Source of the DNA: Candidatus Sumerlaeia bacterium
GTDB lineage: Bacteria; Sumerlaeota; Sumerlaeia; MVZB01
Length of the DNA stretch: 64,000 nucleotides
Reading direction: 5' to 3'
Assembly: GCA_039683515.1 (NCBI GenBank)
Contig: JBDKRG010000059.1
Span: forward strand, 105,003 to 169,002
Part shown: in pieces, positions 2-59,350 of the stretch
How positions within the stretch are numbered: the stretch's first letter is position 1
How the letters are laid out: each line of letters begins with the position of its first letter
The notes under the pieces: generated by a model
Database searches by the model: none
Told to the model about the DNA's origin: nothing
The model's input: only the letters and a program-made list of their open reading frames with translations
Position numbers and translations under genes: made by a program

Positions 2-961
2 CGCCCGGCCAACTACGTGGTGATCGCGCACGGCGACGGCCTCTACACGCGCTACTACCACCTGCGCAAGGGAAGCGTGGCGGTGAAGGCCGGCGACGCC
101 GTCCCCGAAGGCCGGCAGATCGGGCTGGTCGGCAGCAGCGGCAACTCCAATTTCCCGCACCTGGACTTCGCCTACATCGAAAACGACAAGGCGCTCGAAA
201 CGTTCCACGGCGCCGGCAACGCGCTCGAGTCGCGCTGGGTGAGCCAGCCCGCCATGCCGACGGGGCCGATCATCACCGATTTTGCGTTCTTCGACCCCAC
301 GGACAACGTCATCCTGCCCAACGATTTCAGGCGCACCGGCACGTTCCTGAAGAACACCATGATCGCATGGATGTATCACGGCGTGAATTTTCCGAGGAGT
401 TACACGGCCCATTTCACCTTCATCCGCCCGGACGGGACCACGGCCGCGACATACAGCGACACCGCGACGTTCGACCCGCTGAACTCCTACACGTGGGATG
501 CGTGGGACTATACGTTTTTCGACGCCACGCCGGTCGGCACGTGGAAGATTCAGATGCGGGTCGACGGCGTGCTCGTCCTGGAGGCGCCGTTCGCGTTCGT
601 CTCCAACCAGGTCTATATCGTCAACCGCCCCCCCAGGGCGATCACGGCCGAGTTCCGCCTGGCGACCGGGTCGATCGCCACGTGCGCCCCCGTGTGCGCG
701 ATCACGAGTCCGCACCTGTGCGACGACTACGACTACGGGACCGTGCGCTACACGTACCTGTGGAAGATCAACGGCAAGACCGTGCGCACCGTGATCAGCG
801 CGGGGATGTCGGACGTGCTGCCGAAGGGACTGGTCAAATACAACGACAAGCTCGAGTGCGTCATCACGCCGTCCGACGGCGTGATGGACGGGGCCCCCAC
901 GACCATTTCGAGGATCGAGAAGAAGAACGCCGCGGAGCCCGGCTGGCTGGGCGCCAGGTGA
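2..961 (+). CDS. M23/LytM-family peptidase domain protein, 5' end outside window, with ~230-aa C-terminal extension
   Basis: The frame is open from nt 2. 'VIAHGDGLYTRYYHL...GLVGSSGNSNFPHLDFAY' is the M23 HxxxD ... P-H-x-H core, but the last His reads Asp (PHLD). I recognise no motif in the C-terminal part. Confidence 0.7.
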   Translation, partial: RPANYVVIAHGDGLYTRYYHLRKGSVAVKAGDAVPEGRQIGLVGSSGNSNFPHLDFAYIENDKALETFHGAGNALESRWVSQPAMPTGPIITDFAFFDPTDNVILPNDFRRTGTFLKNTMIAWMYHGVNFPRSYTAHFTFIRPDGTTAATYSDTATFDPLNSYTWDAWDYTFFDATPVGTWKIQMRVDGVLVLEAPFAFVSNQVYIVNRPPRAITAEFRLATGSIATCAPVCAITSPHLCDDYDYGTVRYTYLWKINGKTVRTVISAGMSDVLPKGLVKYNDKLECVITPSDGVMDGAPTTISRIEKKNAAEPGWLGAR

Positions 962-1042
962 AACGACGCATGAGGAGTGATGAATGGTGAAAACGCCCTG
1001 AAGGGAAATCCCCCACGGGCGGGCCCTGTGAACAAATCTTTA

Positions 1043-1072
1043 TTGACAGAAGCACTCGGAATTTTTTATAAG
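1043..1072 (+). promoter_or_regulatory. sigma70-like promoter candidate for rplM-rpsI
   Basis: TTGACA (1043-1048), a 17-18 nt spacer, then TTATAAG (1066-1072). It sits in an AT-rich patch about 125 nt upstream of rplM. Confidence 0.5.
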
Positions 1073-1196
1073 GTTGCGTTCGTGCGGTTTGCGCGGAAAA
1101 GCAGGCTGGCCCGCCCTTGAGAGGCGGCGATGCACTTCCGGCGCGTGCAAACCAAGCTGAACCAAGCGTAGAGCACCTGAACAGGAAACTGAAGTC

Positions 1197-1646
1197 ATGG
1201 GTTACACCGCCTCCGCCAACGACAAGACACTTCAAGAGAAGTGGTATGTTGTCGACGCCGAGAACAAAATTCTCGGTCGCCTTGCCAGCGACATCGCCTA
1301 CGTCCTGCGCGGCAAGCACACCCCGCAGTACACGCCGCACGCCAACATGAAGACACACGTCGTCGTGGTCAACGCCGAGAAGATCCGGCTGACCTCCGAC
1401 AAGATGCGGACGAAGACCTACCACCGTCACACCGGTTGGCCCGGCGGCCACCACTCGATGACGGCCGAACAGCTCAACGCGCGCAAGCCGGGCGAGCTGG
1501 TTCGCATGGCAGTCCAGGGCATGATCCCGAAAAACCGGCTGGGCCGCGCGACGATGACGCGCCTGCGCATCTTCCCGGGCCCGGACCACACGCATCAGGC
1601 GCAGAAACCCGAACCGCTGCCCGCTCGCACCGTGGCGGCCATGTAA
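1197..1646 (+). CDS. rplM: 50S ribosomal protein L13
   Basis: 'KWYVVDAENKILGRLAS...LRGKHTPQYTPH...VVVVNAEKI...YHRHTGWPGG...GMIPKNRLG' is typical L13. It is followed by S9 as in the conserved operon. Confidence 0.97.
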   Translation: MGYTASANDKTLQEKWYVVDAENKILGRLASDIAYVLRGKHTPQYTPHANMKTHVVVVNAEKIRLTSDKMRTKTYHRHTGWPGGHHSMTAEQLNARKPGELVRMAVQGMIPKNRLGRATMTRLRIFPGPDHTHQAQKPEPLPARTVAAM

Positions 1647-1711
1647 ATGCAGTAGCCCGCACGTAAGCAAGGGCTTCAAATTTTGAACCGATTACAAGCA
1701 GGGGTTAAACA

Positions 1712-2101
1712 ATGGAGCAATACCTGGGAACCGGAAGGCGCAAATGCTCGGTGGCGCGCGTCTACCTTCGGCCCGGCCGCGGCCGCATCGTCATCAATGG
1801 CAAGGCCCCCGAGGTCTACTTCGCCAAGCACCCGACCATCGAGGACACGTTCCGCGCCCCGCTGCGCGAGACGCACACGATCAGCAAGTATGACGTGATC
1901 GTCACCGTCGACGGCGGCGGCGTGCACGGCCAGGCCGACGCGATCCGCCACGGCATCTCCCGCGCCCTCCAGGTCGCCAACCCCGCCCACCGTCCCGTCC
2001 TCAAGTCGCTCGGGTTCCTGACCCGCGACCCGCGCGAGAAGGAAAGGCGCAAATACGGCCTGGTCAAGGCCCGCAAGGCGTTCCAGTTCTCCAAGCGCTA
2101 G
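1712..2101 (+). CDS. rpsI: 30S ribosomal protein S9
   Basis: '[26 protein letters not shown]...[19 protein letters not shown]...[25 protein letters not shown]' is canonical S9, including the C-terminal KR. Confidence 0.97.
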
Positions 2102-2124
2102 GCCGAACGCAACACTCATTACAA

Positions 2125-2156
2125 AGCCCCGGCTCCAGCCGGGGCTTTTTGTTTTT
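2125..2156 (+). terminator. rho-independent terminator after rpsI
   Basis: Stem AGCCCCGGC / GCCGGGGCT with loop TCCA, followed by TTTTTGTTTTT. Confidence 0.85.
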
Positions 2157-2321
2157 ATTGTACCCATGCCGCGCAGGGGGTCGCCGACGAGCGCGAGCTC
2201 ATGGGACGCGGATGACGCGGATCTGACGGATTTTCCCGCACGGTTTATTTACATACTTCTTACATCCGCGTGACAAGCTTTGTGGCATGATTGCTTCAGG
2301 CTTGGGAGAAGGGAGATTAGC

Positions 2322-2798
2322 ATGAAACGCTTCATTTTCGTCGGGCTCGGACTGATGTGGCTGTGCGGCTGCTCCGGCAGCGCGGACCGGATCGAATCGT
2401 CCCGGAAGACGGACGCAACGCCCGCGCCGGAAACAACCCCGGCTCCGGCGCCAATCCTCAATTCGCTCCAGATGGCCGCCAGCGAAACCTATCGGAAATA
2501 CATGACGGCTGCCGTCGGCGCCGGCGCCAAACACCCGGCCACCGAGATCCCGCCGGCATATTGGGCGGACGCCATCAAAGAACTCAAGCCGATCCGGGTC
2601 TATACCCACCGGGTCAACATCGTCGTCGTTCAGCGCGTCAATGAAGAGGTCGAGGAAGGCAAGTATATCTACATCCCGATTTCCTCGTACCTGCCCGAGA
2701 ACGGCGTGGACGGGTTCACGGTGACGCCCAACCCGCATCAGGGCAACACGTACCAGCTCGGCACCGGCGTCTTCGACTACAGCCGCCGCCTAAAATAA
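2322..2798 (+). CDS. hypothetical lipoprotein
   Basis: The start was chosen at the ATG preceded by GGGAGAAGGGAG. 'MKRFIFVGLGLMWLCGCSGS' is a signal peptide plus lipobox (L-C-G-C). Confidence 0.6.
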   Translation: MKRFIFVGLGLMWLCGCSGSADRIESSRKTDATPAPETTPAPAPILNSLQMAASETYRKYMTAAVGAGAKHPATEIPPAYWADAIKELKPIRVYTHRVNIVVVQRVNEEVEEGKYIYIPISSYLPENGVDGFTVTPNPHQGNTYQLGTGVFDYSRRLK

Positions 2799-2830
2799 GC
2801 CCCTATTTTTAATATTGAGGCACTCCTCGC

Positions 2831-2889
2831 ACTCGTGCTCGTGCTCGTGCGTCGTGCTCGTGCGTCGTGCTCGTGCTCGTAATCGTAAC
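2831..2889 (+). repeat. hexamer composite repeat (CGTGCT)n(CGTAAT)n, copy 1
   Basis: actcgtgctcgtgctcgtgcgtcgtgctcgtgcgtcgtgctcgtgctcgtaatcgtaacc. It lies in a convergent intergenic spacer. Confidence 0.9.
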
Positions 2890-3032
2890 CTGGCGCAGCC
2901 AGAACCAAATTGCCGTTCCTTAAGAACCGCGTCAGCGGTTCCGAAATCATCGGATTTTTTCCGTGTCCTCTGGATTTCTGTGACCTCTGTGTATCGAAAA
3001 TCGAATCGCCCTGGTCCATCGCGCAGGACGCG

Positions 3033-4889
3033 CTACTTGACGTAAACCGACAAATCCTTCCCCTTCCAAGCCGCCGTCCACCCCGGTCCCGCGATTTTGT
3101 CGACGTTGCGATCCATCAGGTTCAGCACGACGAGCGCCTGGGCGTCGAACGGCTCGCGGCGCGGGATCAGGTTGCGGTCGCGGCCGTTGTCCTCGAGCAT
3201 GTGCTCGATCCTCACCTGCCCCGCCTCGGGCTCGCCCAGCATCGTCCAGACGGGGTACTCCCACGTGTCGCCGCCGAGAACGAGACCGACGCGCGCGATC
3301 CCTCGCTCGCGAATCACGTTCGTGACCGCCTCGTACTGCCCGCGCCAGTCGGGCTGGGCGATGAACACGAGTTCGCCCGGCGGCGAGGCGAAGATGTTCG
3401 GTTTCCCGAAGAGCGGCCGGAAGTGGTTCCAGCCGAGCCACCAGGTTGAGGCGGCGATGATCACGATCATCGCGCCCGCGGCAAGCCGGCGGAAGCGGGT
3501 CTCGCCCAGCATGAGGCCCGCCAGCGGCGACCACAGCACAAAGAGCGGCAACTGAAGGCGGCTGTGCCACGGCTGCCACTTCAGGTAGAAGCAGAAGATC
3601 AAGGCGCCGCAGATCGCCACGGCCGCCACCGCCGCGCGGCCGCCCCGGGGGCGGGTTTTGACCAGCCAGGCGAGGCCGGCGAGGATCAGGATAAAATGCA
3701 GCGGGTTGCCGGCCTGGTCCTCGTTCGTGGAGAGCTTCAGGATCCGGAACCTGTCGCGGAGGAATGTGGTCGCGGGGTCGTCGGGATCGGCGCCGATCGC
3801 GCGGTGCGCCATGCGGACGGCGTTTTCGGTCTTCCGGTTCACGGACTCCCACGGCGTCGACAGGTGGATGGCGGCGTTGCGCATGAGGTTCGAGAGGATC
3901 GTGCGCGGCCCGTGGGTCTCGTTGTTGTAGGAGAAGAGGTTGGCCTGGTGCAGCTGGCCCGGGCCGAGCGGGTCCCCATAGCGGCCGTAATTGCGCGCCC
4001 AGTGGCCGGCGTTCAGAACCAGGACGACCAGCGCGACGATCGCCAGCTGACGCAGGCGTTTTTCCCCGATAAACCGCGCCAGAATCCAGACGCCGAGCGG
4101 GGCCGCGAACAGCCAGGCCGTCCCCTTGGTCAGCAGCGCCAGGCCGAGGCAGGCGCCGATCATGACCGGCGAGGATCCCGGCTCGAGCAGCAGCGCCGCG
4201 AGGCAAACCAGCCAGAACGCGGTGACATAATCGTTCTGCGTCGAGGTCGACTGGAGGATGCCCATCGGCAGGGTGGCGCAGAACACGGCGGCGGCGATCT
4301 GGCCGCGAACGGACGCGCCGAGCCGGCGCGCGATGCGCGAAACCACGATCGCCGAGCCGACCATCGCCGCCCACTGGACGAGGCTGACGAGCCGGTCGCC
4401 GCCGGCCAGGAGCTTCAGATGCAGGATCGTCATCTCGGCCCAGGGTGGCTGATACAGCTGGCGGTCGTTGCTGGTCGGGTAATGCGCGAGCGAGCGGTTC
4501 TGGATCCAGTGCGACACGCGCCCGAGGTGATACGTCATCGAGTCCCAGTTGTTGGGCGGGGCGATCAGATCGATGAACAGCGTGACAAACGCGATGCAGG
4601 CGATGGCCGCCAGGAGCGCTCCGGCGAACGGGCAGGCGGGCCGTTGCGCCGGCGCGACCGGCTTCCACGCGCGGATGGCGAAACCGGCGGCGGCGATCGC
4701 GGCAACGGCCCAGACGGCGAGGATCGGGAAGAGCGCGAGGGCGTGGAGGCCGCTCAGCGCCTCGGACGCGATCACGACGCAGACGGCGACGGCGGCCGCC
4801 GCGCGGATGAGCGCCATGCGCACATCCCCGGACCGGCCGAAAGCCAGCCACAGCATGGCGAAAACGAGGAACGGGATGAAACCAGGCAT
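3033..4889 (-). CDS. polytopic membrane protein, GT-C-fold glycosyltransferase-like (ArnT/PMT/PIG-V style)
   Basis: About 12 hydrophobic segments. It has a periplasmic-loop motif 'PPNNWDSMTYHLGRVSHW' reminiscent of the acidic-loop motif of GT-C enzymes, and a ~110-aa soluble C-terminus. Confidence 0.5.
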   Translation of the reverse strand: MPGFIPFLVFAMLWLAFGRSGDVRMALIRAAAAVAVCVVIASEALSGLHALALFPILAVWAVAAIAAAGFAIRAWKPVAPAQRPACPFAGALLAAIACIAFVTLFIDLIAPPNNWDSMTYHLGRVSHWIQNRSLAHYPTSNDRQLYQPPWAEMTILHLKLLAGGDRLVSLVQWAAMVGSAIVVSRIARRLGASVRGQIAAAVFCATLPMGILQSTSTQNDYVTAFWLVCLAALLLEPGSSPVMIGACLGLALLTKGTAWLFAAPLGVWILARFIGEKRLRQLAIVALVVLVLNAGHWARNYGRYGDPLGPGQLHQANLFSYNNETHGPRTILSNLMRNAAIHLSTPWESVNRKTENAVRMAHRAIGADPDDPATTFLRDRFRILKLSTNEDQAGNPLHFILILAGLAWLVKTRPRGGRAAVAAVAICGALIFCFYLKWQPWHSRLQLPLFVLWSPLAGLMLGETRFRRLAAGAMIVIIAASTWWLGWNHFRPLFGKPNIFASPPGELVFIAQPDWRGQYEAVTNVIRERGIARVGLVLGGDTWEYPVWTMLGEPEAGQVRIEHMLEDNGRDRNLIPRREPFDAQALVVLNLMDRNVDKIAGPGWTAAWKGKDLSVYVK

Positions 4890-6983: not shown

Positions 6984-7102
6984 CGCTTATTTTACTTTCA
7001 CAAAAGCATCAAAGATTCAGCCAAATCAACGAAATAGCCTTGCGTCAAAGCGGCCGATTCACCAAGATAGCAACATGCAATAAGCATCGGGAGGAGTGCC
7101 CC

Positions 7103-10100
7103 GTGGCCGACTTGCAACGTGCTGTTGTTTTTCCAATCCTGATCCCGCTCGGGACGACCGCCCCGAGTTCACGCCGGACGTTCGCAACCTATACGCTGAT
7201 CGCGATCAGTTTCTTTGTTTTTCTAGCAGGTTTCAGATCCGCTCTCGTCAGCCAGGCGCTCGCGTTCTACACGAACGACGACTGGTATCGATACCTGACC
7301 TATGCGTTCGTGCACGAGTCGTCGTGGTCGGGACTGGCGCACCTGTGCATGAACATGTTCTTCCTGTGGATTTTCGGCAGCCCGCTCGAGACGCGGATGG
7401 GCTGGTGGCGCTTCATCCTGCTCTACCTGGCGTGCGCGGCGGCGGGGGCGGCGGTGTGGGACCTGTTCCAATCGCTGCCCAACGTCAAGCTGATCGGCTC
7501 GTCGGGGGCGGTGTGGGGGTTGATCGGCTCGTATCTCATCCTGTGGCCGTTTTCGTCGGTCATCTGCTACTTCGTCCTGACGGCCCTCTTCTTCCCCTTT
7601 TACGCGACGACCTACCACGCGCTGGCCGTTTTCTTCCCGATCGTCTATTACGTCCTGGCCGGGCTGATTTACTTCATGGCGTGGAGGTTCGACATCAAGC
7701 TGCCGTTCGGGCCCGTCGCCTGGCTGGCGCACCTGGGCGGCATCGCGGCCGGCCTGGGCCTGACGGCGGCGTTCTACGGGTTCCACGGCTTCACCATCGA
7801 GGCCGACGAGGAGGAGTCGCTCCAGAGGAAGCTCCAGCTCCGGATCGACCGGCAGAGGCTCGGGTTCGCCCCCGACGGCCCCAAGGTCGACGTTGCCGAG
7901 CCGCGGCCGGTCAAGCCGATGTCGGCCAGGCTGATGCCGCTGCATGAGGCGGTCGTCAACGGCGACCGCGAGCGCGCCGTCAAGCTCTGGCACGAGCTGC
8001 TCAAGCCGGCGGAGGGGGCCTCCCTCCTGCCCGGGCCGCAGATGGACCTGGCGCGCATCCTGATCCGCGAGGGCGAAACCGGCGAGGCGACCGAGGCGCT
8101 CGAACGGCTCGTCAAGGCGCATCCGGAGTGCGAACTGGCGACGATGGCGCGGTTCGAGCTGGCCACCCTGCTGGTCGATGCCGCCGAATTTGCCCGGGCC
8201 GCCGCGTTCCTGCGCCAAATCGAGTCCAACGCGCCGCTCGACCTGAGCCGGGAGATCAAGCAGCTTCGGCGCCGGATACCGGACCCGTTTCTGGAAGAGC
8301 CGGCCGCCCCCCGGGCCTCGACGGAGCTGTTCGAACCCGGGTCGGAGGAGACCCCCGGCTCCCCGACGATCGACGATTTCATCCGCGCCGCGGGGGGTGG
8401 GCCTTCCCGCAGCGCCGACAGCCTGTTCGGCAACCCCGAAGACACCGACGCGTTCAAGATGCAGGTCGGCAAGGACGCACCGCCCCAATCCAGGCACCGC
8501 CTGGACCAGACGACGCCGCCCATTTTCCTCGACGCCGAGGAGAAGAAGGCCAACGAGCTGTTCGGCGACCCGAACGATACCGACGCGTTCAAGATGAACA
8601 CCGGCAAGGAGATCCCGCTCCAGCCCGGCCTGATCCACGAGGACACCACGCCGCCGGCGATGCTCGAGGCGGAGGAGGCGCGCGCCAAGGACCTGTTCGG
8701 CGACCCCGAGGACACCGGCTCGTTCCAGATGAACGTCAAGCCGGATGCGCCCAGGTCCGTGCCGCTGACCCGGGACCAAACAGACCCGCCGATCCTGTTC
8801 GATACCGATCCGGGCGAGGCGGCGCCCCCGCCCGATCCGCGCCCGGCCCGCGGGAGCGAGCCGCTCGAAGCCGCCGGCGAACTGTTCGGCAACCCCGAGG
8901 ACACCGGGGCGTTCGAGATGAACATGAAGCCGGATGCGCCGAGGCTCAAGCCGCTCACCAGGGACGACACCCGGCCGCCGATCATGCTCGATACCAACCC
9001 GGACGAGGCGGCGCCCCCGCCCGATCCGCGCCCGGCCCGCGGGAGCGAGCCGGACCAACCGGCGCCCTCGCCCGAGCCGCTGGCGCCGATCTTCCTCGAC
9101 GACGACGATTTGCTCAGCGTCCCGCCCCCGGAGGAGAAGGCGGCCGAGCCGTCACCGAAGCCGTGGGAGCCGAGACCGGCGCAGCCCGAGCCGGCCGCGC
9201 CCGAGCCGAAACCGCGGCCGGAAAAATTCATTTTCCGCTCGTCGATCCTGCCCAAGCACGAGATCAAGCAGCCGCTGGCGCCGGTGCAGTCGAGCATCAA
9301 CCTGGAGCCGCTCGACATCCAGCTGGAACGGCTCAAGACCTCGATCACGCCGGCGAGCGGCCCCAGCCCCGAGGTCTTCATCGGCGACATCACGAATTTC
9401 AGCCCGCAGCCGGAGACGAGCGACACGCACGACAAGCGCCTCGTCCTGCGGCGTGGGGTGAAGTACGCGGCGATCCTGACGCCGGGCTGCCCGGTCGACA
9501 TCCCGCTGGTGTGCGCGGCCATCGCGCCCGTGCTGGGGCTCAGCCCCGACGGGACGCACCACGCGCTGCTGCGCCGGCGCGGGATCCTCGCCGAGGATCT
9601 GACCGCGTCCGAGGCCGAGGCGCTCGCCAAGGACCTCAGCGCCAACGGCCAGTCGGTCTCGGTCGTGGCGTGCGACGACCAGCTCGAGTTCGGACCGCCG
9701 CAGGACGTCCTGACCTACAGCGACGAGGGGGCGTCGGCGCGGTTCTCGATTTCCAACGAGGCCCTGACCTGCCGCTGGAGCCAGGCCGTATTCTTCGCCG
9801 CCGGGCTCGTGCGGCTCGACCCGACGGCGCCCGGCCGCGCGCTGATCGACCTGTTCTTCGCGCAGCCGCGCGCGCACCTGCGGATCTGGGAAAACACGTT
9901 CGTCTACCCCGACCGTGTCGTCGTCGCGGCCAAAGGGATGGAAAACCAGCGCCAGAGCGATTCCGACCACGGCTTCCTGCGCCGCGAATGGTGCTTCCGC
10001 TCGATGGCGGCCGAGATCGACACCCACGGCCGCAACGCCGTCCGCACGCGCAGCTTCAGCTCGTGGCTCGACCTGGCGACGCCGCTGCCGACGGCCCATT

Positions 10101-10189
10101 TCTGGAGCCTGATCGAATACGAAAACTTCCTGCGCTGGCACCTGATGGCCTACCACGTGCCCAAGAAGAAGTTCGAGGCGAAGAAATAA
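7103..10189 (+). CDS. rhomboid-family intramembrane serine protease fused to TPR-like helical region, 4 tandem repeats and a large unknown C-terminal domain
   Basis: The GTG at 7103 is preceded by GGGAGGAG. Rhomboid motifs are present: 'YAFVHES...HLCMNMFFLWIFG', 'GSSGAVWGLIG' (GxSG) and 'AHLGGIAAGL'. The remaining ~750 aa has no known catalytic motif. Confidence 0.8.
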   Translation: MADLQRAVVFPILIPLGTTAPSSRRTFATYTLIAISFFVFLAGFRSALVSQALAFYTNDDWYRYLTYAFVHESSWSGLAHLCMNMFFLWIFGSPLETRMGWWRFILLYLACAAAGAAVWDLFQSLPNVKLIGSSGAVWGLIGSYLILWPFSSVICYFVLTALFFPFYATTYHALAVFFPIVYYVLAGLIYFMAWRFDIKLPFGPVAWLAHLGGIAAGLGLTAAFYGFHGFTIEADEEESLQRKLQLRIDRQRLGFAPDGPKVDVAEPRPVKPMSARLMPLHEAVVNGDRERAVKLWHELLKPAEGASLLPGPQMDLARILIREGETGEATEALERLVKAHPECELATMARFELATLLVDAAEFARAAAFLRQIESNAPLDLSREIKQLRRRIPDPFLEEPAAPRASTELFEPGSEETPGSPTIDDFIRAAGGGPSRSADSLFGNPEDTDAFKMQVGKDAPPQSRHRLDQTTPPIFLDAEEKKANELFGDPNDTDAFKMNTGKEIPLQPGLIHEDTTPPAMLEAEEARAKDLFGDPEDTGSFQMNVKPDAPRSVPLTRDQTDPPILFDTDPGEAAPPPDPRPARGSEPLEAAGELFGNPEDTGAFEMNMKPDAPRLKPLTRDDTRPPIMLDTNPDEAAPPPDPRPARGSEPDQPAPSPEPLAPIFLDDDDLLSVPPPEEKAAEPSPKPWEPRPAQPEPAAPEPKPRPEKFIFRSSILPKHEIKQPLAPVQSSINLEPLDIQLERLKTSITPASGPSPEVFIGDITNFSPQPETSDTHDKRLVLRRGVKYAAILTPGCPVDIPLVCAAIAPVLGLSPDGTHHALLRRRGILAEDLTASEAEALAKDLSANGQSVSVVACDDQLEFGPPQDVLTYSDEGASARFSISNEALTCRWSQAVFFAAGLVRLDPTAPGRALIDLFFAQPRAHLRIWENTFVYPDRVVVAAKGMENQRQSDSDHGFLRREWCFRSMAAEIDTHGRNAVRTRSFSSWLDLATPLPTAHFWSLIEYENFLRWHLMAYHVPKKKFEAKK
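8423..9052 (+). repeat. in-frame tandem repeats (4 units of 45-63 aa) inside the rhomboid fusion gene
   Basis: Units start at 8423, 8558, 8693 and 8882, each beginning 'LFG[ND]P[EN]DT[DG][AS]F[KQE]M'. Units 3 and 4 share an identical 48-nt stretch (8816-8863 = 9005-9052). Confidence 0.95.
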
Positions 10190-17420: not shown

Positions 17421-17626
17421 TTGGAACCCCTTTCGGAGAATCGTTCAAAATCGGGCAAAATCATTCAAAAATTCGAAACAAAGCTAATGAAAATACATAT
17501 TCATAATAAATTATCCCAACGCCGGCCGCCGCGCGCAACGAATGGCTTTTGGAATCATTGAAATATTCGATCTTTATTTTCCTCGTCATTGTTTCGAATT
17601 TCCGAATGATTTTGACCGATTTTGAT

Positions 17627-22604: not shown

Positions 22605-22675
22605 TTCGTGCTCGTGCGTCGAGCTCGTGCTCGTGCTCGTGCTCGTAATCGTAATCGTAATCGAAAATCGATCGA
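22605..22675 (+). repeat. hexamer composite repeat (CGTGCT)n(CGTAAT)n, copy 2
   Basis: ttcgtgctcgtgcgtcgagctcgtgctcgtgctcgtgctcgtaatcgtaatcgtaatcgaaaatcgatcg. It begins 28 nt upstream of the smpB start codon, on the opposite strand. Confidence 0.92.
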
Positions 22676-23532: not shown

Positions 23533-23570
23533 ACCCCATGGGTCCCATGGGACCCATGAGACGCATGCGT
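23533..23570 (+). repeat. nonamer-period repeat (GGKNCCCATG-type)
   Basis: aaccccatg ggtcccatg ggacccatg agacgcatg. Confidence 0.85.
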
Positions 23571-27600: not shown

Positions 27601-27667
27601 AATGGCATCACGGCTCGGGCGAAATCGAATCAGTTTGCCTTTGATCGCCTCCCGCGATAGCCTATGG

Positions 27668-27750
27668 GTCTGAGCTGGGGGTGCTGCGCCGAACGGCGCG
27701 GCTGAGAGAGTCCCTTCGAACCTGATCCGGGTAATGCCGGCGCAGGGAAA
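27668..27750 (+). promoter_or_regulatory. TPP (THI-box) riboswitch aptamer
   Basis: gggggtgc...ggCTGAGAgagtcccttcgaACCTGATCcGGgTAATgCCggCGcAGGGAA matches the conserved TPP aptamer cores (CUGAGA; ACCUGAUCUGGAUAAUGCCAGCG). It lies directly upstream of thiC. Confidence 0.88.
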
Positions 27751-27780
27751 GCTTTCCGGCTTTCTTTCCCCCACACTTAA

Positions 27781-29706
<1,926 letters not shown>

Positions 29707-35856: not shown

Positions 35857-35968
35857 GATGAATGATGAATGATGAGAGATGAATGATGAATAAGAGAAAA
35901 GAAATTCGCCTTCATCCTTCAAGCATTCATATTCTTTCATCATTCCTCATTCATCATTCATCATTCAG
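35857..35968. repeat. inverted arrays of heptamer GATGAAT
   Basis: Left arm is gatgaatgatgaatgatgagagatgaatgatgaat. Right arm is ttcatcattcctcattcatcattcatcattc. The right arm includes the last codons (NDE-stop) of the 35954..36718 gene. Confidence 0.85.
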
Positions 35969-36718
35969 TCGGAACAGCCTGATGGCGTTGCCGCTCAGGA
36001 TCCGCTCCTTGTCCTCGTCGCTGATCCGGGCGCTGCGGACGCGCAGCGGGCCGACCTCGGGGGGCATCTGCAGGACCATGCACGAGCCGTGCAGGATCCG
36101 GCCCGCCCCGACCTCGCGCACGAAGATCTCGAGCTCGCCCAGGCCCATCATGCCGGAGGTTTCGACCCACGCGTTGGGGCAGTTGCGCAGGATGTCGAGC
36201 GTCGACTGCATCTCGAACAGGTAGTTGACGCACGCGACGATGAACTGGGTCCCGGGGTGCTGGGCGATGAACGCCTTGTAGGCCGGCAGCGACGCCGCCC
36301 CGATCCGCTGGGTCGTCCACATGCGGTTGACGAGCATGACCGGGATCCCTTTTTCCCCGCAGTAGTCGGCCATCGCGGCCAGGCCGGGCTCCTCGCTCAG
36401 GACGAAGTTCTGGTGCTGCGGCAGGAGCTTGACGAGCTTGGGTCCGGGCGCGTCGAGCTGTTCCTTGTATTCCAGGCCGTTGGGGTACGGGTTGAACGTC
36501 AGGGCCGGCCAGAGGCGGCCGGGGTGTTTCGCGCAGGCGGCGAGGGCCTCGGCGTTGCCGTCGCGGTCGCTGGTCAGGTAGCCGCGGATCGGGCTGACGA
36601 ACGCCCGCTCGATCCCGGCGATGTCCATCCGGCTGACGAGCCCGTCGGCATCGTTGTGGCGGAGCTGCCAGTAGGGCAGGTTGCCGATGTATGTATTGAC
36701 GTCGATGATCACTGCCAT
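35954..36718 (-). CDS. amidohydrolase-fold (amidohydrolase_2-like) protein lacking the metal-binding signature
   Basis: TIM-barrel amidohydrolase-like layout. However, the N-terminal HxH reads 'IDVNTY' and the strand-8 'GSD' reads 'HGSC'. Its ATG directly abuts the upstream TAA. Confidence 0.55.
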   Translation of the reverse strand: MAVIIDVNTYIGNLPYWQLRHNDADGLVSRMDIAGIERAFVSPIRGYLTSDRDGNAEALAACAKHPGRLWPALTFNPYPNGLEYKEQLDAPGPKLVKLLPQHQNFVLSEEPGLAAMADYCGEKGIPVMLVNRMWTTQRIGAASLPAYKAFIAQHPGTQFIVACVNYLFEMQSTLDILRNCPNAWVETSGMMGLGELEIFVREVGAGRILHGSCMVLQMPPEVGPLRVRSARISDEDKERILSGNAIRLFRLNDE

Positions 36719-37483: not shown

Positions 37484-37538
37484 AACTCGTGCTCGTGCGT
37501 CGTGCTCGTAATCGTCATCGTAATCGTAATCGAACGCG
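37484..37538 (+). repeat. hexamer composite repeat, copy 4
   Basis: aactcgtgctcgtgcgtcgtgctcgtaatcgtcatcgtaatcgtaatcgaacgcg, 25 nt upstream of the amidohydrolase start (opposite strand). Confidence 0.9.
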
Positions 37539-37576
37539 ATTCCAATGATTTTGGGGTGAGGGCGAAACAAGGCGGA

Positions 37577-37630
37577 TGGGGTGGATCGATTTTCGATTAC
37601 GATTACGAGCACGAGCACGAGCACGACGCA
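37577..37630 (-). repeat. hexamer composite repeat, copy 5 (inverted relative to copy 4)
   Basis: cgattttcgattacgattacgagcacgagcacgagcacgacgcacgagcacgaa is the reverse complement of the family consensus. Confidence 0.9.
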
Positions 37631-37664
37631 CGAGCACGAAAAAAGGCCCACGCTTTTCGGCGTG
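37628..37664 (-). terminator. rho-independent (bidirectional) terminator after the 37690..40488 gene
   Basis: AAAAAAGGCCCACGC-ttttcg-GCGTGGGCCTTTTT. Confidence 0.85.
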
Positions 37665-37689: not shown

Positions 37690-40488
37690 TTAGTATTGTG
37701 TGATCTTGGCGGTCTCGCGCAGCTTGTCCATCCAGTCCTCCAGGTTCGGGAAGATCGGATACTGGTGGCCGGCCACCCAATCCGAGCGGATGCTGTAGGT
37801 GAACTTCTGGCCGACCTGGTAATTCATGATGGCATAGGTCTCGCCCGGCAGTTGCTCCAGCCGATTGAAACGCGCCACCGGGTAAACGACGCCGATGCCG
37901 ATCCAGCCGATGCTCCCGTCCTGGAAGCCGCGGTAGCCCATCACGCCGGCCGTCTCGTCGATGGCGAACGTCGAGCTGGTGATCTTGCGGAGGCCGATGC
38001 CGACCTCGACCTTGTCGCCCTTCTTGCCGCCCTTGATCTGGACCTCGATCGGCGAGTCGGGCCGGCCGGCCAGCGCCGTCGGGCGGAAGATCACGGTGTA
38101 GGGATTGTCCGCCGGGCCGACATTGGTCACGACGCACTCCAGCGTGACCTTGGTCTTCGTGTACTCGATCGGCTCGATCTTGCCGTCCTTGCCCTTGTGC
38201 CACGTGAAGATGGGGTTCATCTTCGGGGCTTCGGGGACGTCCGGCTTGTAGACCGGGTAGTTCTTCCCGTTGATCCACAGCATCAGGCCGCCGCACCCGC
38301 AGGTGTTGCCGATGTGCAGGCAGTCCATCCCCCAGTTCTGCTGTTCGTGGTAGCTGCCGCCGCCGCCGCGATTGGGGCTGGTGATGATGGGGTACAAGAG
38401 GACCGGGCGGGTCTTGCCGAAGCAATCCCAATGGCCGTAATACATGCGGTAGCCCGTCTCCCCGTTCAGGGATTCCCAGCCGACGTTGGGCGGGAGCCAC
38501 GTGTCGTCCCACGCCACCGCCTGGACCTGGGGCTCCTTCTGCAGTTGGGCGCGCCACTTGGCGTAGGCCTTGGGCGCGGGGGCGGCAAAGAGGCCGGCGA
38601 ATTTCTGAACCGGGTTGCAGTATTGCTTGCGGATGAGCCGCGTCATCGCATCGGTGTCGCCCGTGACGCGGGCGGCGACGAGCTTCTCGACGAACGCGGT
38701 CTTGTTGGCGGCGTTGGCCTGCTCCTGGAGGGCGCACAGGCGGCGGTCGGCGGCAAGCCGCATGAAGAACATCATCGATTCGTCGCGGGCGAGCAGCTTC
38801 CTGGACAGCGTCTCGGTCGTGATCGGGCTGAGGAACTTGGCCTCGATGAAGCTCCAGACCTCGTCCTTGCCCGAGCCCGGCTTGATGTTGTTCAGGGCCG
38901 TGGCCAGCGCCTGGTTGAGCGCGTAGAGGCGGGCGGGCTCGTCGTTGACGACCGGCCCGAACGCGCCGTTGACTTCCTGGAAGTTCCACTTGACCGGCTT
39001 GACGCCGCCCTCGTCGAGCTTCCAGTAATCCTCGGTCTCGCCGTCGCCGTTGACGTCGATCTGGACGCGGTCGACGATGCCGTTGGAGTCGGTGTCGAAC
39101 CACTCGTAGCGCATGTCGTTCTTGCCGTCGAAGTTGTAGTCGACGTCCATCCACGCCGTGCTCTGGTCCTTGAGGTGGATGCGCTTGTCGGCGGGGCTGA
39201 AGTAGTATTCAAACGGGCCCTTGGGGGCGTTGATGTATTCGAAGCGGCGGTTGACGGGGCCGCTCGAGGGGCCGCCCACGGCCGGGAAAATGACCTGGCC
39301 GTCGCGTCCCTTGTAGGCCTCGTTCAGGACGCCTTCCCAGCGCTCGCCGGCGGCCTTCTGGACCGCGGGCACGGGGGCGACGTTGTTGCCGTCCTCGACC
39401 CACGTCAGCATCGCGGCCGGGTACGTGACCGAGCCGAGCCATTCGGCGGCGCGGTCGCGGTCGAGCATGATGCCGACCGGCCTGCCCTGGACGGTCCACT
39501 CGGGCCGGGCGTATTCCTGCGGGATGCGCAGCGTGAACGCCGGGCCGGTGCGGCTCGGGTCGACCTTCTGGGTCCAGCCCGGGCCCTCGGCCGAGATCGA
39601 GACGTCGTAGGCGCGCGGGTTATCCTTCGTCCCGGCGTTGGCCGCGTCGAAGCTCCAGCGCAGCGAGCGGACGAGGCCGTCGTCGGCGACCAGGCGGATG
39701 ACTTCCTCGGTCACGCCGTCGCCGTCGCGGTCGTAGAACTCGAACGGGTTCTCGAAGAACGCCGTCCAGCGCGGCTCGCCCGGCTTGATGCGCAACTCGA
39801 CGAACCCCTCGTTGCCGTTGAAGTGTGTGCGCGTCTGGCAGCGGTTCTGGTCGTAGGCATAGTTGACGTCGTACCACAGCAGGTGGTCCTTGCCGACTTC
39901 CTTCTCGGTCGCGCCGTAGTTCTGGGAGTACCAGCAGAGCACCATCCCGCCGTTGTAGGCGGAGCCGGTATACATGCCCATGCGGTCGAGGCCGCCGTCG
40001 CCGTCGACGTCTTCGTAGTCGATCACGGCGTCGAGCATGCCGTCGGCCTTCCAGTCGGCGTAGAACGTGCTGTTGGCCTTGTTGGGCTCGTCGCCCTTCT
40101 TGATCGGGTACTTGGGGACGGCCTTGACGATGATCGGCTTGCGGGCGGCCGAGTGGCGCGAGTCGTTGTCGAGGAACCACACCTCGTCGGGCTGGCCGTC
40201 GTTGTTGGTGTCATAGTAGAAGCGCGGGGCGGGATCCTCGGCCCCCAGCTTTTTGCCCGAGGCCAGGACTTCCGAGACCTTGGCCGGATCGAGCTTGGCC
40301 TTGTCGCCGAAAACATACTCCAGAGCGGCCTGTTTGTCGGCGGGGTTTGGCGCCTGGCGGGCCGGAGCCTTCTTGCCGGCCGCGGCGGCCCCGCGCTGCC
40401 CGTTGCGGCCGGGCCGCTGGGCCTGGACCTCGACCGCCATCGCGAACACAACCACCAGTGCGATTGACAACATCAATCGACTCTTCAT
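37690..40488 (-). CDS. large secreted protein, paralog 1 (Ca-binding-loop repeats; C-terminal DUF4861-like region)
   Basis: The start at 'MKSRLMLSIALVVVFAMAVEVQA' has SD AAGGGAGAG. There are multiple D-x-[DN]-x-DG loops ('DTNNDGQPDE','DVDGDGGLD','DRDGDGVTEE','DVNGDGETED'). The C-terminal 'GWESLNGETGYRMYYGHWDCFGK...NTCGCGGLMLWING' is reminiscent of DUF4861. Confidence 0.6.
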   Translation of the reverse strand: MKSRLMLSIALVVVFAMAVEVQAQRPGRNGQRGAAAAGKKAPARQAPNPADKQAALEYVFGDKAKLDPAKVSEVLASGKKLGAEDPAPRFYYDTNNDGQPDEVWFLDNDSRHSAARKPIIVKAVPKYPIKKGDEPNKANSTFYADWKADGMLDAVIDYEDVDGDGGLDRMGMYTGSAYNGGMVLCWYSQNYGATEKEVGKDHLLWYDVNYAYDQNRCQTRTHFNGNEGFVELRIKPGEPRWTAFFENPFEFYDRDGDGVTEEVIRLVADDGLVRSLRWSFDAANAGTKDNPRAYDVSISAEGPGWTQKVDPSRTGPAFTLRIPQEYARPEWTVQGRPVGIMLDRDRAAEWLGSVTYPAAMLTWVEDGNNVAPVPAVQKAAGERWEGVLNEAYKGRDGQVIFPAVGGPSSGPVNRRFEYINAPKGPFEYYFSPADKRIHLKDQSTAWMDVDYNFDGKNDMRYEWFDTDSNGIVDRVQIDVNGDGETEDYWKLDEGGVKPVKWNFQEVNGAFGPVVNDEPARLYALNQALATALNNIKPGSGKDEVWSFIEAKFLSPITTETLSRKLLARDESMMFFMRLAADRRLCALQEQANAANKTAFVEKLVAARVTGDTDAMTRLIRKQYCNPVQKFAGLFAAPAPKAYAKWRAQLQKEPQVQAVAWDDTWLPPNVGWESLNGETGYRMYYGHWDCFGKTRPVLLYPIITSPNRGGGGSYHEQQNWGMDCLHIGNTCGCGGLMLWINGKNYPVYKPDVPEAPKMNPIFTWHKGKDGKIEPIEYTKTKVTLECVVTNVGPADNPYTVIFRPTALAGRPDSPIEVQIKGGKKGDKVEVGIGLRKITSSTFAIDETAGVMGYRGFQDGSIGWIGIGVVYPVARFNRLEQLPGETYAIMNYQVGQKFTYSIRSDWVAGHQYPIFPNLEDWMDKLRETAKITQY

Positions 40489-40677
40489 CTGACTCTCCCT
40501 TCGATGAAAATATAGTCCGAGGCGCGTCACGGCCGATCCGGCCGCGCAGAGTAACCGTTCATTCAATCAAATACCATTCATCACTCATCAGTCAGGCAAT
40601 GTCAATAAAACTAGTGTCGCGTCAAATGTCATCTGTTGGATTTGTTTTTGAACCGCGAAGCGGTTCGACGTTCAAAG

Positions 40678-43448: not shown

Positions 43449-43492
43449 GGATCCTATGAGTCCCATGAGTCCTATAAGTCCTATGGGACTCA
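43449..43492 (+). repeat. nonamer tandem repeat GAGTCCYAT x ~4.5
   Basis: ggatcctat gagtcccat gagtcctat aagtcctat gggactc. Confidence 0.9.
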
Positions 43493-44932: not shown

Positions 44933-45128
44933 AAGCGCTGAAAGCGCGGGAGATTTCAGCCTGGGGTGGAGCGAAGCGTAGCCCCAGGAATAAGGCGTAA
45001 CATTGACAGGAGCGCTGAAGGCGCGAGAGAAACTTATGTCACGCCTTCAGCGCTCGTTATTTCTTCGTCCGACACCTGGGGCTGCGCTTCGCTCCACCCC
45101 AGGCTTAATTCTCTTGCGCCTTCAGCGC
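44933..45128. repeat. ~200-bp composite nested-palindrome element, copy 1
   Basis: Module order: AAGCGCTGAAAGCGCG / CCTGGGG-N15-CCCCAGG / GAGCGCTGAAGGCGCG / CGCCTTCAGCGCTC / CCTGGGG-N15-CCCCAGG / GCGCCTTCAGCGC. The outer, middle and inner pairs are mutually complementary. Confidence 0.9.
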
Positions 45129-46398: not shown

Positions 46399-46431
46399 GG
46401 GCCTTGGGTCCCTTGGGTCCCTTGGGTCCTT
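46399..46431 (+). repeat. nonamer tandem repeat TTGGGTCCC x3
   Basis: gggccttgggtcccttgggtcccttgggtcc, ending 5 nt from the FAH gene stop. Confidence 0.9.
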
Positions 46432-50080: not shown

Positions 50081-53781
<3,701 letters not shown>

Positions 53782-56537: not shown

Positions 56538-56736
56538 AAGCGCTGAAAGCGCGAAAGAATACAGCCTGGGGCGCAGCGAAGCGCAGCCCCAGGTAAGCGG
56601 CGCCATATCATTGGAGCGCTGAAGGCGCGGAAGAAGCCGATTTCTCTCGCTCCTTCAGCGCTCCGGTTTGGTGCGGTTCGTGACCTGGGGCTGCGCTGCG
56701 CTTCGCCCAGGCTATGATCTCTTGCGCCTTCAGCGC
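56538..56736. repeat. ~200-bp composite nested-palindrome element, copy 2
   Basis: Same module order and spacing as 44933-45128: AAGCGCTGAAAGCGCG ... CCTGGGG-N15-CCCCAGG ... GGAGCGCTGAAGGCGCGG ... GCTCCTTCAGCGCTCC ... CCTGGGG-N15-CCCAGG ... GCGCCTTCAGCGC. Confidence 0.9.
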
Positions 56737-57430: not shown

Positions 57431-58792
57431 TTAGAATCCGACCCGGCTCATGCCGTGCACGTAGGCGATGACGGCCGAGGCGACCGCCGAGGCGACCCGG
57501 CCGGCGTCCTCGGGATCGGGCGTCTCCTGCCTGGCGCCCATCGGGACGACGACGGCCGCCGACGGGGCGTCGACGCGCCGCAGCAGATACGACGGGGCCA
57601 GCTCGTAGGCGATCGTCTGGTCGGGGAACTGTCGGCCGAGCTCGGTCCTCAGCAGCGAACCGAGCGCCAGCGACTGGAATTCGTGCTGGGCGAAACGCTG
57701 GGCCACGGGCTCGCCCGATTGCCGCTCGGGCCACAGCGCGCTATTGACCACCCAGATCGCGTAGCTCTTCGGGTCGTCCGCTTTCTGCGATGCCGGCCTC
57801 GTCGCCATGACGTCGATCACGAGCTGGGGCGACTGGCCGTAGACCTGCGTGACCAGGGAGTCCTGCGCGCGCTGGCCGTTGGGGGCGATCAGCACCGAAC
57901 TTTCGAGCTGGATGCGCTCCTCGAGCTCCTGGCCGATCTTCTGCGCGATCGGCTCGAGCGCCCGGTCGCACACGATCGTGATGCGGCTGGGCGGCTGGCG
58001 GTGCGCCAGGTCCGAGAGCTGCGCCCAGGAAAGCCCGACCGTGCCGGCCAATGCTTGCGGCGGCTGCAGGACGGCTTCGTCGCCATTGGACGGGCTCTTC
58101 TTCTGCCTCGGCTCGGGGCGGCTGGGAACGATCACCGTGCGGCGCGCCTCGTCCGGCGGCGCGGGGGCGACGGTCGGCTCGGGCGTCGGCTCGGCAATGG
58201 CGGGGGCGGCGGTCGGGGCGGCGGTCGGCGTCGGCGAAGGGGTCGGCGTCGGCCGGTTCAGGACGCCGGTCGGGATGTCCGGCAGCGCCGGGACGGCCGG
58301 CGCCGGCGTGGGCGTGGGCGTCGCCGCGACGGGCGCCGGGGCGGCCGGGACGGAAGCCGGCGCCTTCTGGCCCTCGCCGGAGACTTCGATGTTGAGCGCC
58401 GTCAGGACCTTGCGGACGGTCGCCTCGGGGACGAGCACGCGCCCCTCGCGCAGCGTGAGCTGCCGGTCGACGCCGCTCATCCTGCCGTCGATCACGATCG
58501 CCGGCTGGCGGCCGAGGATGTCGAACTGCTTGCCGCCGGCGTTGATCCGCACGCTCTGGCTGCGCGAATCGTAGCCGCCCCGGGCCTGCGGGTCGAAGTG
58601 CTGCACGACGCGCAGGAAGTCCTGCATGAGCAGGTAATGCTCCCCTGCCTCGCTGATCAGGGTCATGGTGACCTCGCCCGACGGGGTCGGGGCGGCGGTT
58701 TGCGCGGCGGCGAACCGGGCCGCCAGGATCACGGCGGCGAGCAGCATCAGGATGCGGGTCAAGGCGGTCGGCAGGTTCATGGAGGGGGTCAT
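57431..58792 (-). CDS. secreted protein: stalk-like beta domain, P/A/T-rich linker, degenerate amidase_3-like C-terminal domain
   Basis: Signal peptide 'LTRILMLLAAVILAARFAAA'. 'IDGRMSGVDRQLTLREGRVLVPEATVRKVLTAL' is like the copper-amine-oxidase-N/stalk fold. The linker is 'PAPVAATPTPTPAPAVP...PTPSPTPTAAPTAAP'. The C-terminal 'LLRRVDAPSAAVVVPMG' is like the amidase_3 end, but the GHGG and His motifs are absent. Confidence 0.35.
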   Translation of the reverse strand: MTPSMNLPTALTRILMLLAAVILAARFAAAQTAAPTPSGEVTMTLISEAGEHYLLMQDFLRVVQHFDPQARGGYDSRSQSVRINAGGKQFDILGRQPAIVIDGRMSGVDRQLTLREGRVLVPEATVRKVLTALNIEVSGEGQKAPASVPAAPAPVAATPTPTPAPAVPALPDIPTGVLNRPTPTPSPTPTAAPTAAPAIAEPTPEPTVAPAPPDEARRTVIVPSRPEPRQKKSPSNGDEAVLQPPQALAGTVGLSWAQLSDLAHRQPPSRITIVCDRALEPIAQKIGQELEERIQLESSVLIAPNGQRAQDSLVTQVYGQSPQLVIDVMATRPASQKADDPKSYAIWVVNSALWPERQSGEPVAQRFAQHEFQSLALGSLLRTELGRQFPDQTIAYELAPSYLLRRVDAPSAAVVVPMGARQETPDPEDAGRVASAVASAVIAYVHGMSRVGF

Positions 58793-59200: not shown

Positions 59201-59250
59201 AAATCCCCAGCATTGAGCTTCCAATCGGAAAAAAACAAAATTGATGGAAT

Positions 59251-59286
59251 GGATCCTTTGGGTCCCATGAGTCCTATGGGTCCTAG
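59251..59286 (+). repeat. nonamer tandem repeat (GGATCCTTT GGGTCCCAT GAGTCCTAT GGGTCCTAG)
   Basis: Same family as 43449-43492 and 23533-23570. Confidence 0.9.
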
Positions 59287-59307
59287 AGCGCTTGACGAAA
59301 GTTATCG

Positions 59308-59350
59308 GTTCGTGCTCGTGCTCGTGCTCGTGCTCGTAATCGTAATCGAA
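59308..59350 (+). repeat. hexamer composite repeat, copy 6
   Basis: ttcgtgctcgtgctcgtgctcgtgctcgtaatcgtaatcgaat. Confidence 0.92.

Follow-up and report, generated by a model that had tools for sequence, protein, structure and literature searches.

The stretch of DNA analysed here (the window; 64,000 nt of contig JBDKRG010000059.1 from a Candidatus Sumerlaeia bacterium, with a G+C content of 65%) contains six composite arrays of the form (TCGTGC)n(TCGTAA)m, usually with a TCGA end. An earlier note on this DNA had described at least six copies of such a two-block element, all of them intergenic. The six copies listed there exist, with exact limits within a few bases of those given there, and a GC3-based gene map of the window, together with protein family checks, places all of them between genes. 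The arrays, and the loop that separates two of them, are as follows.

Copy 1, solo arm: 2833-2888, plus strand; TCGTGC x2, TCGTGCG, TCGTGC, TCGTGCG, TCGTGC x2, TCGTAA x2
Copy 2, solo arm: array 22606-22664, with the tail TCGAAAATCGATCGAAC reaching 22677, plus strand; TCGTGC, TCGTGCG, TCGAGC, TCGTGC x3, TCGTAA x3, TCGAAAATCGATCGAAC
Copy 3, solo arm: 27794-27833, plus strand; TCGTGC x3, TCGTAA x3, TCGA
Copy 4, left (plus-strand) arm of a hairpin: 37487-37533, plus strand; TCGTGC, TCGTGCG, TCGTGC, TCGTAA, TCGTCA, TCGTAA x2, TCGA
Hairpin loop between copies 4 and 5: 37534-37591, about 57 nt, no strand assigned; without ORF
Copy 5, partner arm: 37592-37639, minus strand; TCGTGC, TCGTGCG, TCGTGC x3, TCGTAA x2, TCGA, as read on the minus strand
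Copy 6: 59286-59349, with the array at 59310-59349, plus strand; box AGCGCTTGACGAAAGTTATCGGT, then TCGTGC x4, TCGTAA x2, TCGA

When the units are read in the phase TCGNNN, the order of the blocks is invariant, in such a way that the GC-rich TCGTGC units come first and the TCGTAA units second in 6/6 copies, as had been claimed. The number of units differs between copies, also as claimed, with 3-7 GC-rich and 2-4 AT-rich units in each. The terminal CGA attributed to the element is present, as TCGA, in five of the six copies, copy 1 showing TCGTAAC instead. The counts greatly exceed chance: allowing up to one mismatch, CGTGCTCGTGCT was matched 20 times in the window (0.68 expected) and CGTAATCGTAAT 10 times (0.03 expected), the expected dodecamer counts being obtained from dinucleotide-preserving shuffles. 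Further runs of at least three TCGTNN units were sought across the window, and none was found beyond the six arrays.

Copy 1 comes after the stop codon of ORF 2280-2798 (plus strand), which follows rplM-rpsI, and before a terminator-like hairpin (2940-2954); the next gene, 3033-4889 (minus strand), is convergent and has its 3′ end towards copy 1. Copy 2 separates the ATG of smpB (22577, minus strand), which is 28 nt away, from the alpha/beta-hydrolase stop codon (22701, minus strand), and in the smpB mRNA it would read in its reverse form, ACGAGC/ACGAUU. Copy 3 belongs to the thiC leader, having a TPP riboswitch aptamer (27667-27766) on one side and the thiC ATG (27862) on the other, with 28 nt between its TCGA and the ATG. 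Copies 4 and 5 are bounded on one side by a terminator-like hairpin and on the other by the translation start of an amidohydrolase gene (PF04909), with its Shine-Dalgarno sequence and ATG: copy 4 is 27 nt away from the ATG at 37459, and copy 5 starts directly after the hairpin (GGCCCACGC..GCGTGGGCC and then T6) downstream of gene 37690-40566 (minus strand), a hairpin that was read from the sequence by eye and was not flagged by the terminator scan. On one side of copy 6 is the start of gene 57431-58792 (minus strand), and on the other the terminator region that follows pilC/gspF (59559-60794, minus strand). The proximity of three copies to the start codons of smpB, thiC and the amidohydrolase gene, described in the earlier note, is therefore real. 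With respect to these leaders, the array is in sense orientation in the thiC mRNA and antisense in those of smpB and the amidohydrolase. A match to rRNA was sought in the window and none was found, every copy lying between protein-coding genes.

Folding of the arrays and other repeats of the window

Copies 4 and 5 had been counted as separate copies; they are two arrays, but as an inverted pair (37487/37639) they constitute a single hairpin, with 48-nt arms that are 92% complementary and a loop of 57 nt. Folded as RNA, the segment 37487-37639 has a minimum free energy of -92.9 kcal/mol, versus -54.3 +/- 4.3 kcal/mol for its shuffles (z -8.9). The solo copies gave no significant structure, the region of copy 1 folding no better than its shuffles (z -1.2) and copy 2 reaching z -2.2, and single arms are not palindromes. 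In the thiC leaders only the riboswitch fold was obtained, the array adding no significant structure.

Other repeats were observed in the window. A second tandem-repeat hairpin is present at 35859-35967, built from (GATGAAT)n versus (TTCATCA)n; its arms measure 32 nt, are 91% complementary and flank a loop of 45 nt, its RNA folds at -45.2 kcal/mol (z -4.4), and it is intergenic and adjoins gene 35954-36718 (minus strand). An inverted repeat at 17445-17625, beside a gene of the GntR family, has arms of 56 nt that are 82% complementary and a loop of 69 nt, and a tandem array of a 10-nt unit (AATCGTTCAA x3.2) forms part of it. Matches to the Rfam family Acido-Lenti-1 were found at 44934-45128 and 56539-56708 (38 and 47 bits), each of them being one arm of a larger inverted repeat (54-nt and 26-nt arms, respectively) and both including the mini-hairpin motif GCGAAGC, in the form AGCGAAGCG. 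Within the long ORF 7040-10189 (plus strand), a unit of 189 nt is duplicated in tandem at 8693-9052 (1.9 copies, 85% identical). Finally, intergenic tandem arrays of a 9-nt unit, approximately (A/T)TGNGTCC(T/C), occur at 23535-23567, 43452-43485, 46402-46429, 50678-50702 and 59249-59285, the last one immediately preceding copy 6.

Family membership, relatives and distribution across phyla

An irregular 7-nt unit, TCGTGCG, is found near the 5′ end of copies 1, 2, 4 and 5 only, and it was absent from around 100 copies from other genomes in which it was sought. Copies 2 and 5 also have in common the tail TCGAAAATCGATC. Copy 6 begins with a 22-nt non-repeat box that recurs in the nearest relative of the source genome, the MAG bin.378 (JAJFUE01), where box, array (2-7 and 1-3 units) and around 90 further conserved bases are repeated together in at least 10 places, that is, the element has been copied within the genome. 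The copies are members of a dispersed family and not products of independent slippage, as the earlier note had proposed; this is shown by the shared TCGTGCG unit, the recurring two-block order and the composite boxes, and the presence of the junction between the blocks in many phyla (see below) supports the same.

The composite of bin.378 is around 170 nt long and consists of the box TAGAGCGCTTGCCGAWAGTTGTCCGT, hexamer arrays, some 90 nt with a small hairpin and a similar direct box, GCGCATTGCCGGAAAACTTTTGTCA. Its members are at loci L017, L030, L038, L045, L066, L079, L087 and L088, to which L085 and L089 were added by eye, and at 59286-59349 of the window. This composite repeat is a candidate for a small RNA gene, a promoter pair or a mobile unit. 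The 9-nt units described above are also found after hexamer arrays in bin.378 (L030, L051).

In the interval bounded by the hydrolase gene and thiC, the contig JAJFUE010000142 of bin.378 is syntenic with the window (80-85% amino acid identity), and its thiC leader contains (TCGTGC)3(TCGTAA)2 TCGA at the same site as copy 3, thus differing by one unit. The core of this array is 100% identical in both genomes, whose ThiC proteins are 80% identical, and the flanking spacer is only around 50-60% identical; a perfect array amid a diverged spacer looks more like constraint than junk, as judged from the sequences compared. In a third genome, whose ThiC is 74% identical, both riboswitch and thiC are present and the array is absent. 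In this array-less leader (L104, around 9940-9960) there is a single TCGTGC unit (CCGTCGTGCCGC), which may be due to chance or may be a seed or a remnant. In bin.378, a degenerate stretch beyond the 3′ end of the hydrolase gene (TCGTGG..TCGTAA..TCGTAA..TCGCGA) may be a remnant, but it was too irregular to be called.

A search for the junction 23-mer CGTGCTCGTGCTCGTAATCGTAA, made over a single genome for each species, found it in at least 96 stretches from at least 38 assemblies, under around 11 phylum-level labels, with a chance expectation, by arithmetic, of around 0.02 in 1.2e12 positions. The labels among the matches listed are Planctomycetota, Chthoniobacterales/Verrucomicrobiae (Verrucomicrobiota), Victivallales, Hydrogenedentota, Riflebacteria, Sumerlaeota, Acidobacteriota, Nitrospiraceae, Desulfobacterota, Bacteroidota and Bacillota; no cyanobacterial label was found among the carriers listed. 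An isolate chromosome and long-read chromosomes are among the carriers, whose G+C content ranges from 42 to 68%. Only 2 viral contigs in a collection of 2.9 million had the junction.

These data bear on the simplest of the alternatives, namely that each array is a microsatellite of independent origin, or that the arrays are an artefact of assembly. Simple tandem units and a source that is probably a metagenome assembly would be in line with it, but the two-block order, the terminal TCGA and the irregular unit recur at unlinked loci, the junction is also found in the isolate genome and in the long-read chromosomes, and the orthologous array at the thiC site comes from an independent assembly. 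This reading is already contradicted by the observations, and we give it almost no credence.

The loci retrieved and the window contain 165 arrays, with arms of 4-14 units, and 28 neighbouring pairs in which a forward array is followed by a reverse one. In 16 of these pairs the loop measures 18-107 nt, and the TCGTAA/TCGA ends point to the loop. Approximately one array in five belongs to an inverted pair, the majority being solo. Among the 63 arrays with two called neighbours, 14 have convergent genes on their two sides, 9 have divergent ones and 40 have genes in tandem, the latter comprising 16 arrays in sense and 24 in antisense orientation. This unbiased gene context and the occurrence of both orientations indicate that there is no preference for promoters, leaders or a strand.

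The emphasis that the earlier note placed on leaders and promoters is consequently not sustained by the 63 arrays, in which position relative to start codons and strand showed no preference. The corresponding explanation would give the arrays a cis-regulatory role in leaders or promoters, where they would tune transcription or translation of the downstream gene, with the number of units acting perhaps as a rheostat, in the manner of a contingency locus. It would account for the three copies at 27-28 nt from start codons, for the array kept perfect, with one unit of difference, at the same site of the bin.378 thiC leader, and for the changes in unit number between close relatives (see below). 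Against it, in addition to the unbiased context, copy 1 is placed between two gene 3′ ends, copies 5 and 6 come after terminator-like hairpins, the orientation of the array differs between the leaders of thiC (sense) and smpB (antisense), no sigma-70-like promoter was present at the copies scanned, the third relative has riboswitch and thiC without the array, and the solo arrays lack significant structure. A contingency locus has its repeat in a promoter spacer or in an ORF, and the arrays showed no positional or strand preference, some of them lying between convergent genes. We regard a cis-regulatory nature of the arrays as improbable.

Several other candidates were tried and rejected. Arrays that seemed to lie inside genes were an artefact of over-extended or spurious ORF calls. 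An insertion preference after the T-runs of terminators was discarded as only 10/137 arrays follow TTT, and convergent pairs 1-3 kb apart were discarded as cargo carriers as they contain ordinary host genes. The scarcity of the junction among viral contigs led to the rejection of a phage vector. A leader peptide (VLVLVIVI or RARARNRN) was rejected because the orientation to genes varies and the nucleotides are conserved, not the peptide. As for TRAP-like (GAG)n, Rho, CsrA and sigma-54 motifs, their spacing or orientation does not fit, and the units of the window are without GGA.

Two further observations concern arrays of other genomes. An 11-12 nt insert, CCGCTTCGCTGA (variants CGCTGCGCTGA and CGCTATCGCTGA; CAGCGAAGCGG on the other strand), interrupts one arm in L007, L010, L033, L049, L059, L044 and L048, which come from Bacteroidota, Bacillota, Riflebacteria, Desulfosarcina and Planctomycetota, and is conserved as nucleotides, not as peptide. 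In L048, from a Thermoguttaceae MAG, positions 600-3300 are a multi-kb non-coding region made up almost entirely of assorted short tandem arrays, and the same locus has a unit of around 380 nt repeated three times, each with a tail-to-tail array pair.

The four-helix-bundle gene between the arms

At locus L067, arms of the same type as those of the window (TCGTGC/TCGTAA) enclose an ORF for a TIGR02436 "four helix bundle protein", scored at 57 bits (cut-off, 24 bits). The Pfam family of TIGR02436 is PF05635, the 23S rRNA intervening-sequence protein, and a link between PF05635 and Avd (DGR) has been described (PMC10053308). The arms of a second locus, L012, enclose a frameshifted remnant of a TIGR02436/PF05635 gene. 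In the window such a gene was sought and none was found. At L099, L101 and L102 the arms abut the upstream stop and the downstream start codons, with the layout TAA|TCGTCCTCG...TCGTAATCGA|ATG, the gene, and then TCGAGGACGAGGACGA... up to the start of the next gene; in two of these three loci the flanking genes are those for PDH E2 and lpd. A query with one subfamily gave 1,713 homologues of the four-helix-bundle protein, many of them with tails (SRTRTRTRT, EDEDENEN, EHEHEYEH) or heads (VLVLVLVL) that are hexamer arrays read in frame.

The association was quantified in 80 metagenome loci selected by the four-helix-bundle protein alone, and hence unbiased for arms, with control windows located at least 400 nt from the gene.

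At least three perfect TCGTNN units upstream of the gene: 41/80 loci; 0/369 controls
At least three perfect NNACGA units downstream of the gene: 43/74 loci; 3/369 controls

When one imperfect unit was allowed, at least one arm was detected in 66/80 loci, and the arrangement of a forward array upstream and a reverse array downstream was found in 33 of the 80 loci, versus 2 with the opposite one. Some four-helix-bundle genes are flanked by two complete empty hairpins. The units around these genes are mostly TCGTCC, TCGTTC and TCGTCG, and the end is often TCGTAA TCGA, from which it follows, across the loci surveyed, that TCGT is constant and two positions vary. At these variable positions true partner arms agree in 77.4%, versus 71.1 +/- 1.4% in permuted pairs, the observed agreement being reached in 0/2000 permutations, so that complementarity between partners is modestly above the control. 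Having in mind that elements with the gene have mostly TCGTCC and those without it TCGTGC, the link between both is carried by their shared architecture and by L067 and L012.

With regard to dynamics, contigs with 96-97% identity differed by two indels only, of 6 nt (one unit) and 18 nt (three units), both within arrays. Unit number is thus changed by whole units between close relatives. Across contigs with 72-100% nucleotide identity, the element located between the genes for PDH E2 and lpd is orthologous, which supports long persistence at one site. There is a large metagenome clade with a four-helix-bundle element exactly between PDH E2 and lpd, to which L099, L102, L110, L118-L121, L124, L127, L128, L130, L133 and others belong. 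A transposase or other means of movement was sought in the loci inspected and none was found; in the same loci no RAYT (Y1 transposase) gene was seen between or beside arrays, and no target-site duplication was found at the borders of short hairpins.

Mobilisation in trans by a RAYT or an IS200/IS605-type transposase, as for conventional MITEs or REP/REPIN sequences, would be consistent with the many copies, all intergenic, with the coexistence of inverted doublets and many singlets, as in REPINs, and with the conserved flanks of the bin.378 composite. However, the arms are non-palindromic and variable in length, the hairpin borders lack target-site duplications, widely spaced pairs enclose ordinary host genes and no transposases, PF05635 being the only recurrent enclosed gene, the elements stay at one locus across the identities given above, and viral contigs are nearly devoid of the junction. 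A MITE has terminal inverted repeats, a target-site duplication and a defined length, and the elements described here vary in length and are mostly single arms. We consider this origin very unlikely.

A different proposal is that the arrays are binding sites on DNA or RNA, with the TCGT period read by a multimeric protein, possibly the four-helix-bundle pentamer or, as for BIMEs, a factor of the nucleoid or gyrase type. It would account for the identical unit sequence across phyla, with TCGT invariant and two positions varying over hundreds of units, for the identical 23-mer in genomes of such different G+C content and for the perfect conservation of the solo thiC copy, and the protein encoded between the arms is related to Avd, which is reported to bind nucleic acid. 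On the other side, the sites are putative, the window has arrays without a four-helix-bundle gene, the arms co-vary with their partners and form hairpins, both needless for a simple binding array, and a period of six bases does not match the helical repeat of DNA. We consider this proposal unlikely, although the constancy of the TCGT period and of the 23-mer across phyla, together with the perfect solo array of thiC, keeps both this proposal and the cis-regulatory one under consideration.

Probable foldback elements and their comparison with known systems

The interpretation that we favour, and consider probable, is that the arrays are the arms of widespread palindromic foldback elements, the complete ones carrying a PF05635/TIGR02436 gene and the copies of the window being gene-less. 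An arm is a series of tandem hexamers, each with an invariant TCGT and two variable bases, with the GC-rich units at the base, TCGTAA toward the loop and TCGA at the inner end. In this reading, a complete member consists of a forward arm, the four-helix-bundle gene as cargo and a reverse arm, a layout like that of S23p-type intervening sequences, and the window contains one empty hairpin (37487-37639) and four solo arms. Solo arms may be half-elements left by deletion, kept uniform through slippage or gene conversion and with little function in cis. Several facts count against the foldback interpretation, namely that the window is without a four-helix-bundle gene, that most arrays are solo, here and elsewhere, that the solo array of the thiC leader is perfectly conserved, that the units differ between elements with and without the gene, that no means of movement was found in the loci inspected, and that the complementarity of partner arms at the variable positions is only modestly above the permuted control.

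When transcribed, paired arms would yield a near-perfect duplex of 30-50 bp, whose base would join the flanking cistrons by bringing the upstream stop near the downstream start. By analogy with rRNA intervening sequences and STRR hairpins, the duplex would be a likely substrate of RNase III or a protector of 3′ ends, or could serve in translational coupling, and such a role in RNase III cleavage, transcript protection or coupling would allow the element to be tolerated inside operons and leaders. A more speculative extension, which we put forward tentatively and hold to be doubtful, is that the TCGTNN hairpins are an undescribed class of genetic element, a pan-phylum, free-living counterpart of rRNA intervening sequences with the Avd-like protein as their sole gene, that this protein, or a partner of it such as a reverse transcriptase, reads the TCGT period, and that gene-less arms dispersed over leaders and 3′ UTRs, sense in thiC and antisense in smpB, could form long duplexes in trans and tie unrelated mRNAs to RNase III.

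To our knowledge, the role of S23p/PF05635 genes has been unknown since rRNA intervening sequences were first described. The genes of this family are very numerous in environmental bacteria, where they are normally inside hairpins whose arms follow a single conserved hexamer grammar, and dozens of arms of this kind are also found where the gene is missing. This gives a candidate nucleic-acid partner for binding, a defined duplex for RNase III and a marker for spread between phyla. In annotation, it accounts for many spurious ORFs and for odd protein tails (RTRTRT, EDEDEN, EHEHEH), and it flags long perfect duplexes in operons and riboswitch leaders.

The earlier note recognised no described family in the arrays, and our searches agree with it: no Rfam family was found over arrays or hairpins in the window, and likewise in 20 other loci, and literature searches by sequence string and by hexanucleotide repeats/Planctomycetes, which covered the literature incompletely, returned nothing on TCGTNN arrays or on their association with PF05635. 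What the analysis adds to the note is that the arrays are of the arm type of elements with the four-helix-bundle gene, and that hairpins of tandem repeats are already known, as the STRR of cyanobacteria. The latter are 7-nt tandem repeats, intergenic and with many copies per genome, whose inverted arrays form intergenic hairpins, such as that between hupS and hupL, and whose function is unknown, transcript stability or translational coupling having been proposed (PMC2670836). The arrays described here are likewise tandem, intergenic and multi-copy, and pair into hairpins (37487-37639 in the window and 16 short-loop pairs elsewhere). By contrast with the STRR heptamers, their units are of 6 nt, with a fixed TCGT and a two-block order and with an identical junction under around 11 phylum-level labels, a 7-nt hairpin being also present at 35859-35967; and whereas STRR come from filamentous (heterocystous) cyanobacteria, none of the phylum-level labels listed for the junction is cyanobacterial. 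We know of no report linking STRR to PF05635 genes.

The second relevant system is that of the rRNA intervening sequences. In Coxiella, the intervening sequence has a 28-bp terminal stem with S23p in the loop, is excised by RNase III and shows variable tandem heptamers (GACAGAT) at its 5′ end; S23p-type intervening sequences are kept vertically, and their ORF can decay (PMC4990558). The likeness includes a long terminal stem, seen at 37487-37639 and in the gene-bearing elements, not in the four solo copies, a PF05635 ORF between arms, as in Coxiella and Leptospira, seen in L067, in L099-L102 and in the 80 metagenome loci, not in the window, and a decayed copy of the gene in L012. S23p intervening sequences are found in helix 45 of the 23S rRNA (helix 25 in some bacteria), whereas the elements described here are located between protein-coding genes or in mRNA leaders; the former are excised by RNase III, and the latter have arms made entirely of hexamer arrays, with no ORF in the copies of the window.

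Other systems share fewer traits. The REP, BIME and REPIN sequences of Proteobacteria are also abundant intergenic repeats, with inverted doublets and singlets, and are often transcribed in operons, but REP units are imperfect palindromes of fixed length tied to RAYT, whereas the arms described here are non-palindromic, variable and associated with a four-helix-bundle gene. Eukaryotic Foldback (FB-type) transposons have long inverted arms of short tandem repeats, variable in length, most of their copies have a small central cargo or none, and few of them contain ORFs; they differ in being eukaryotic, in their much longer arms and in a mobility linked to a transposase, so the likeness is only architectural. 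The nearest described kinds are the STRR hairpins and the S23p-type rRNA intervening sequences.
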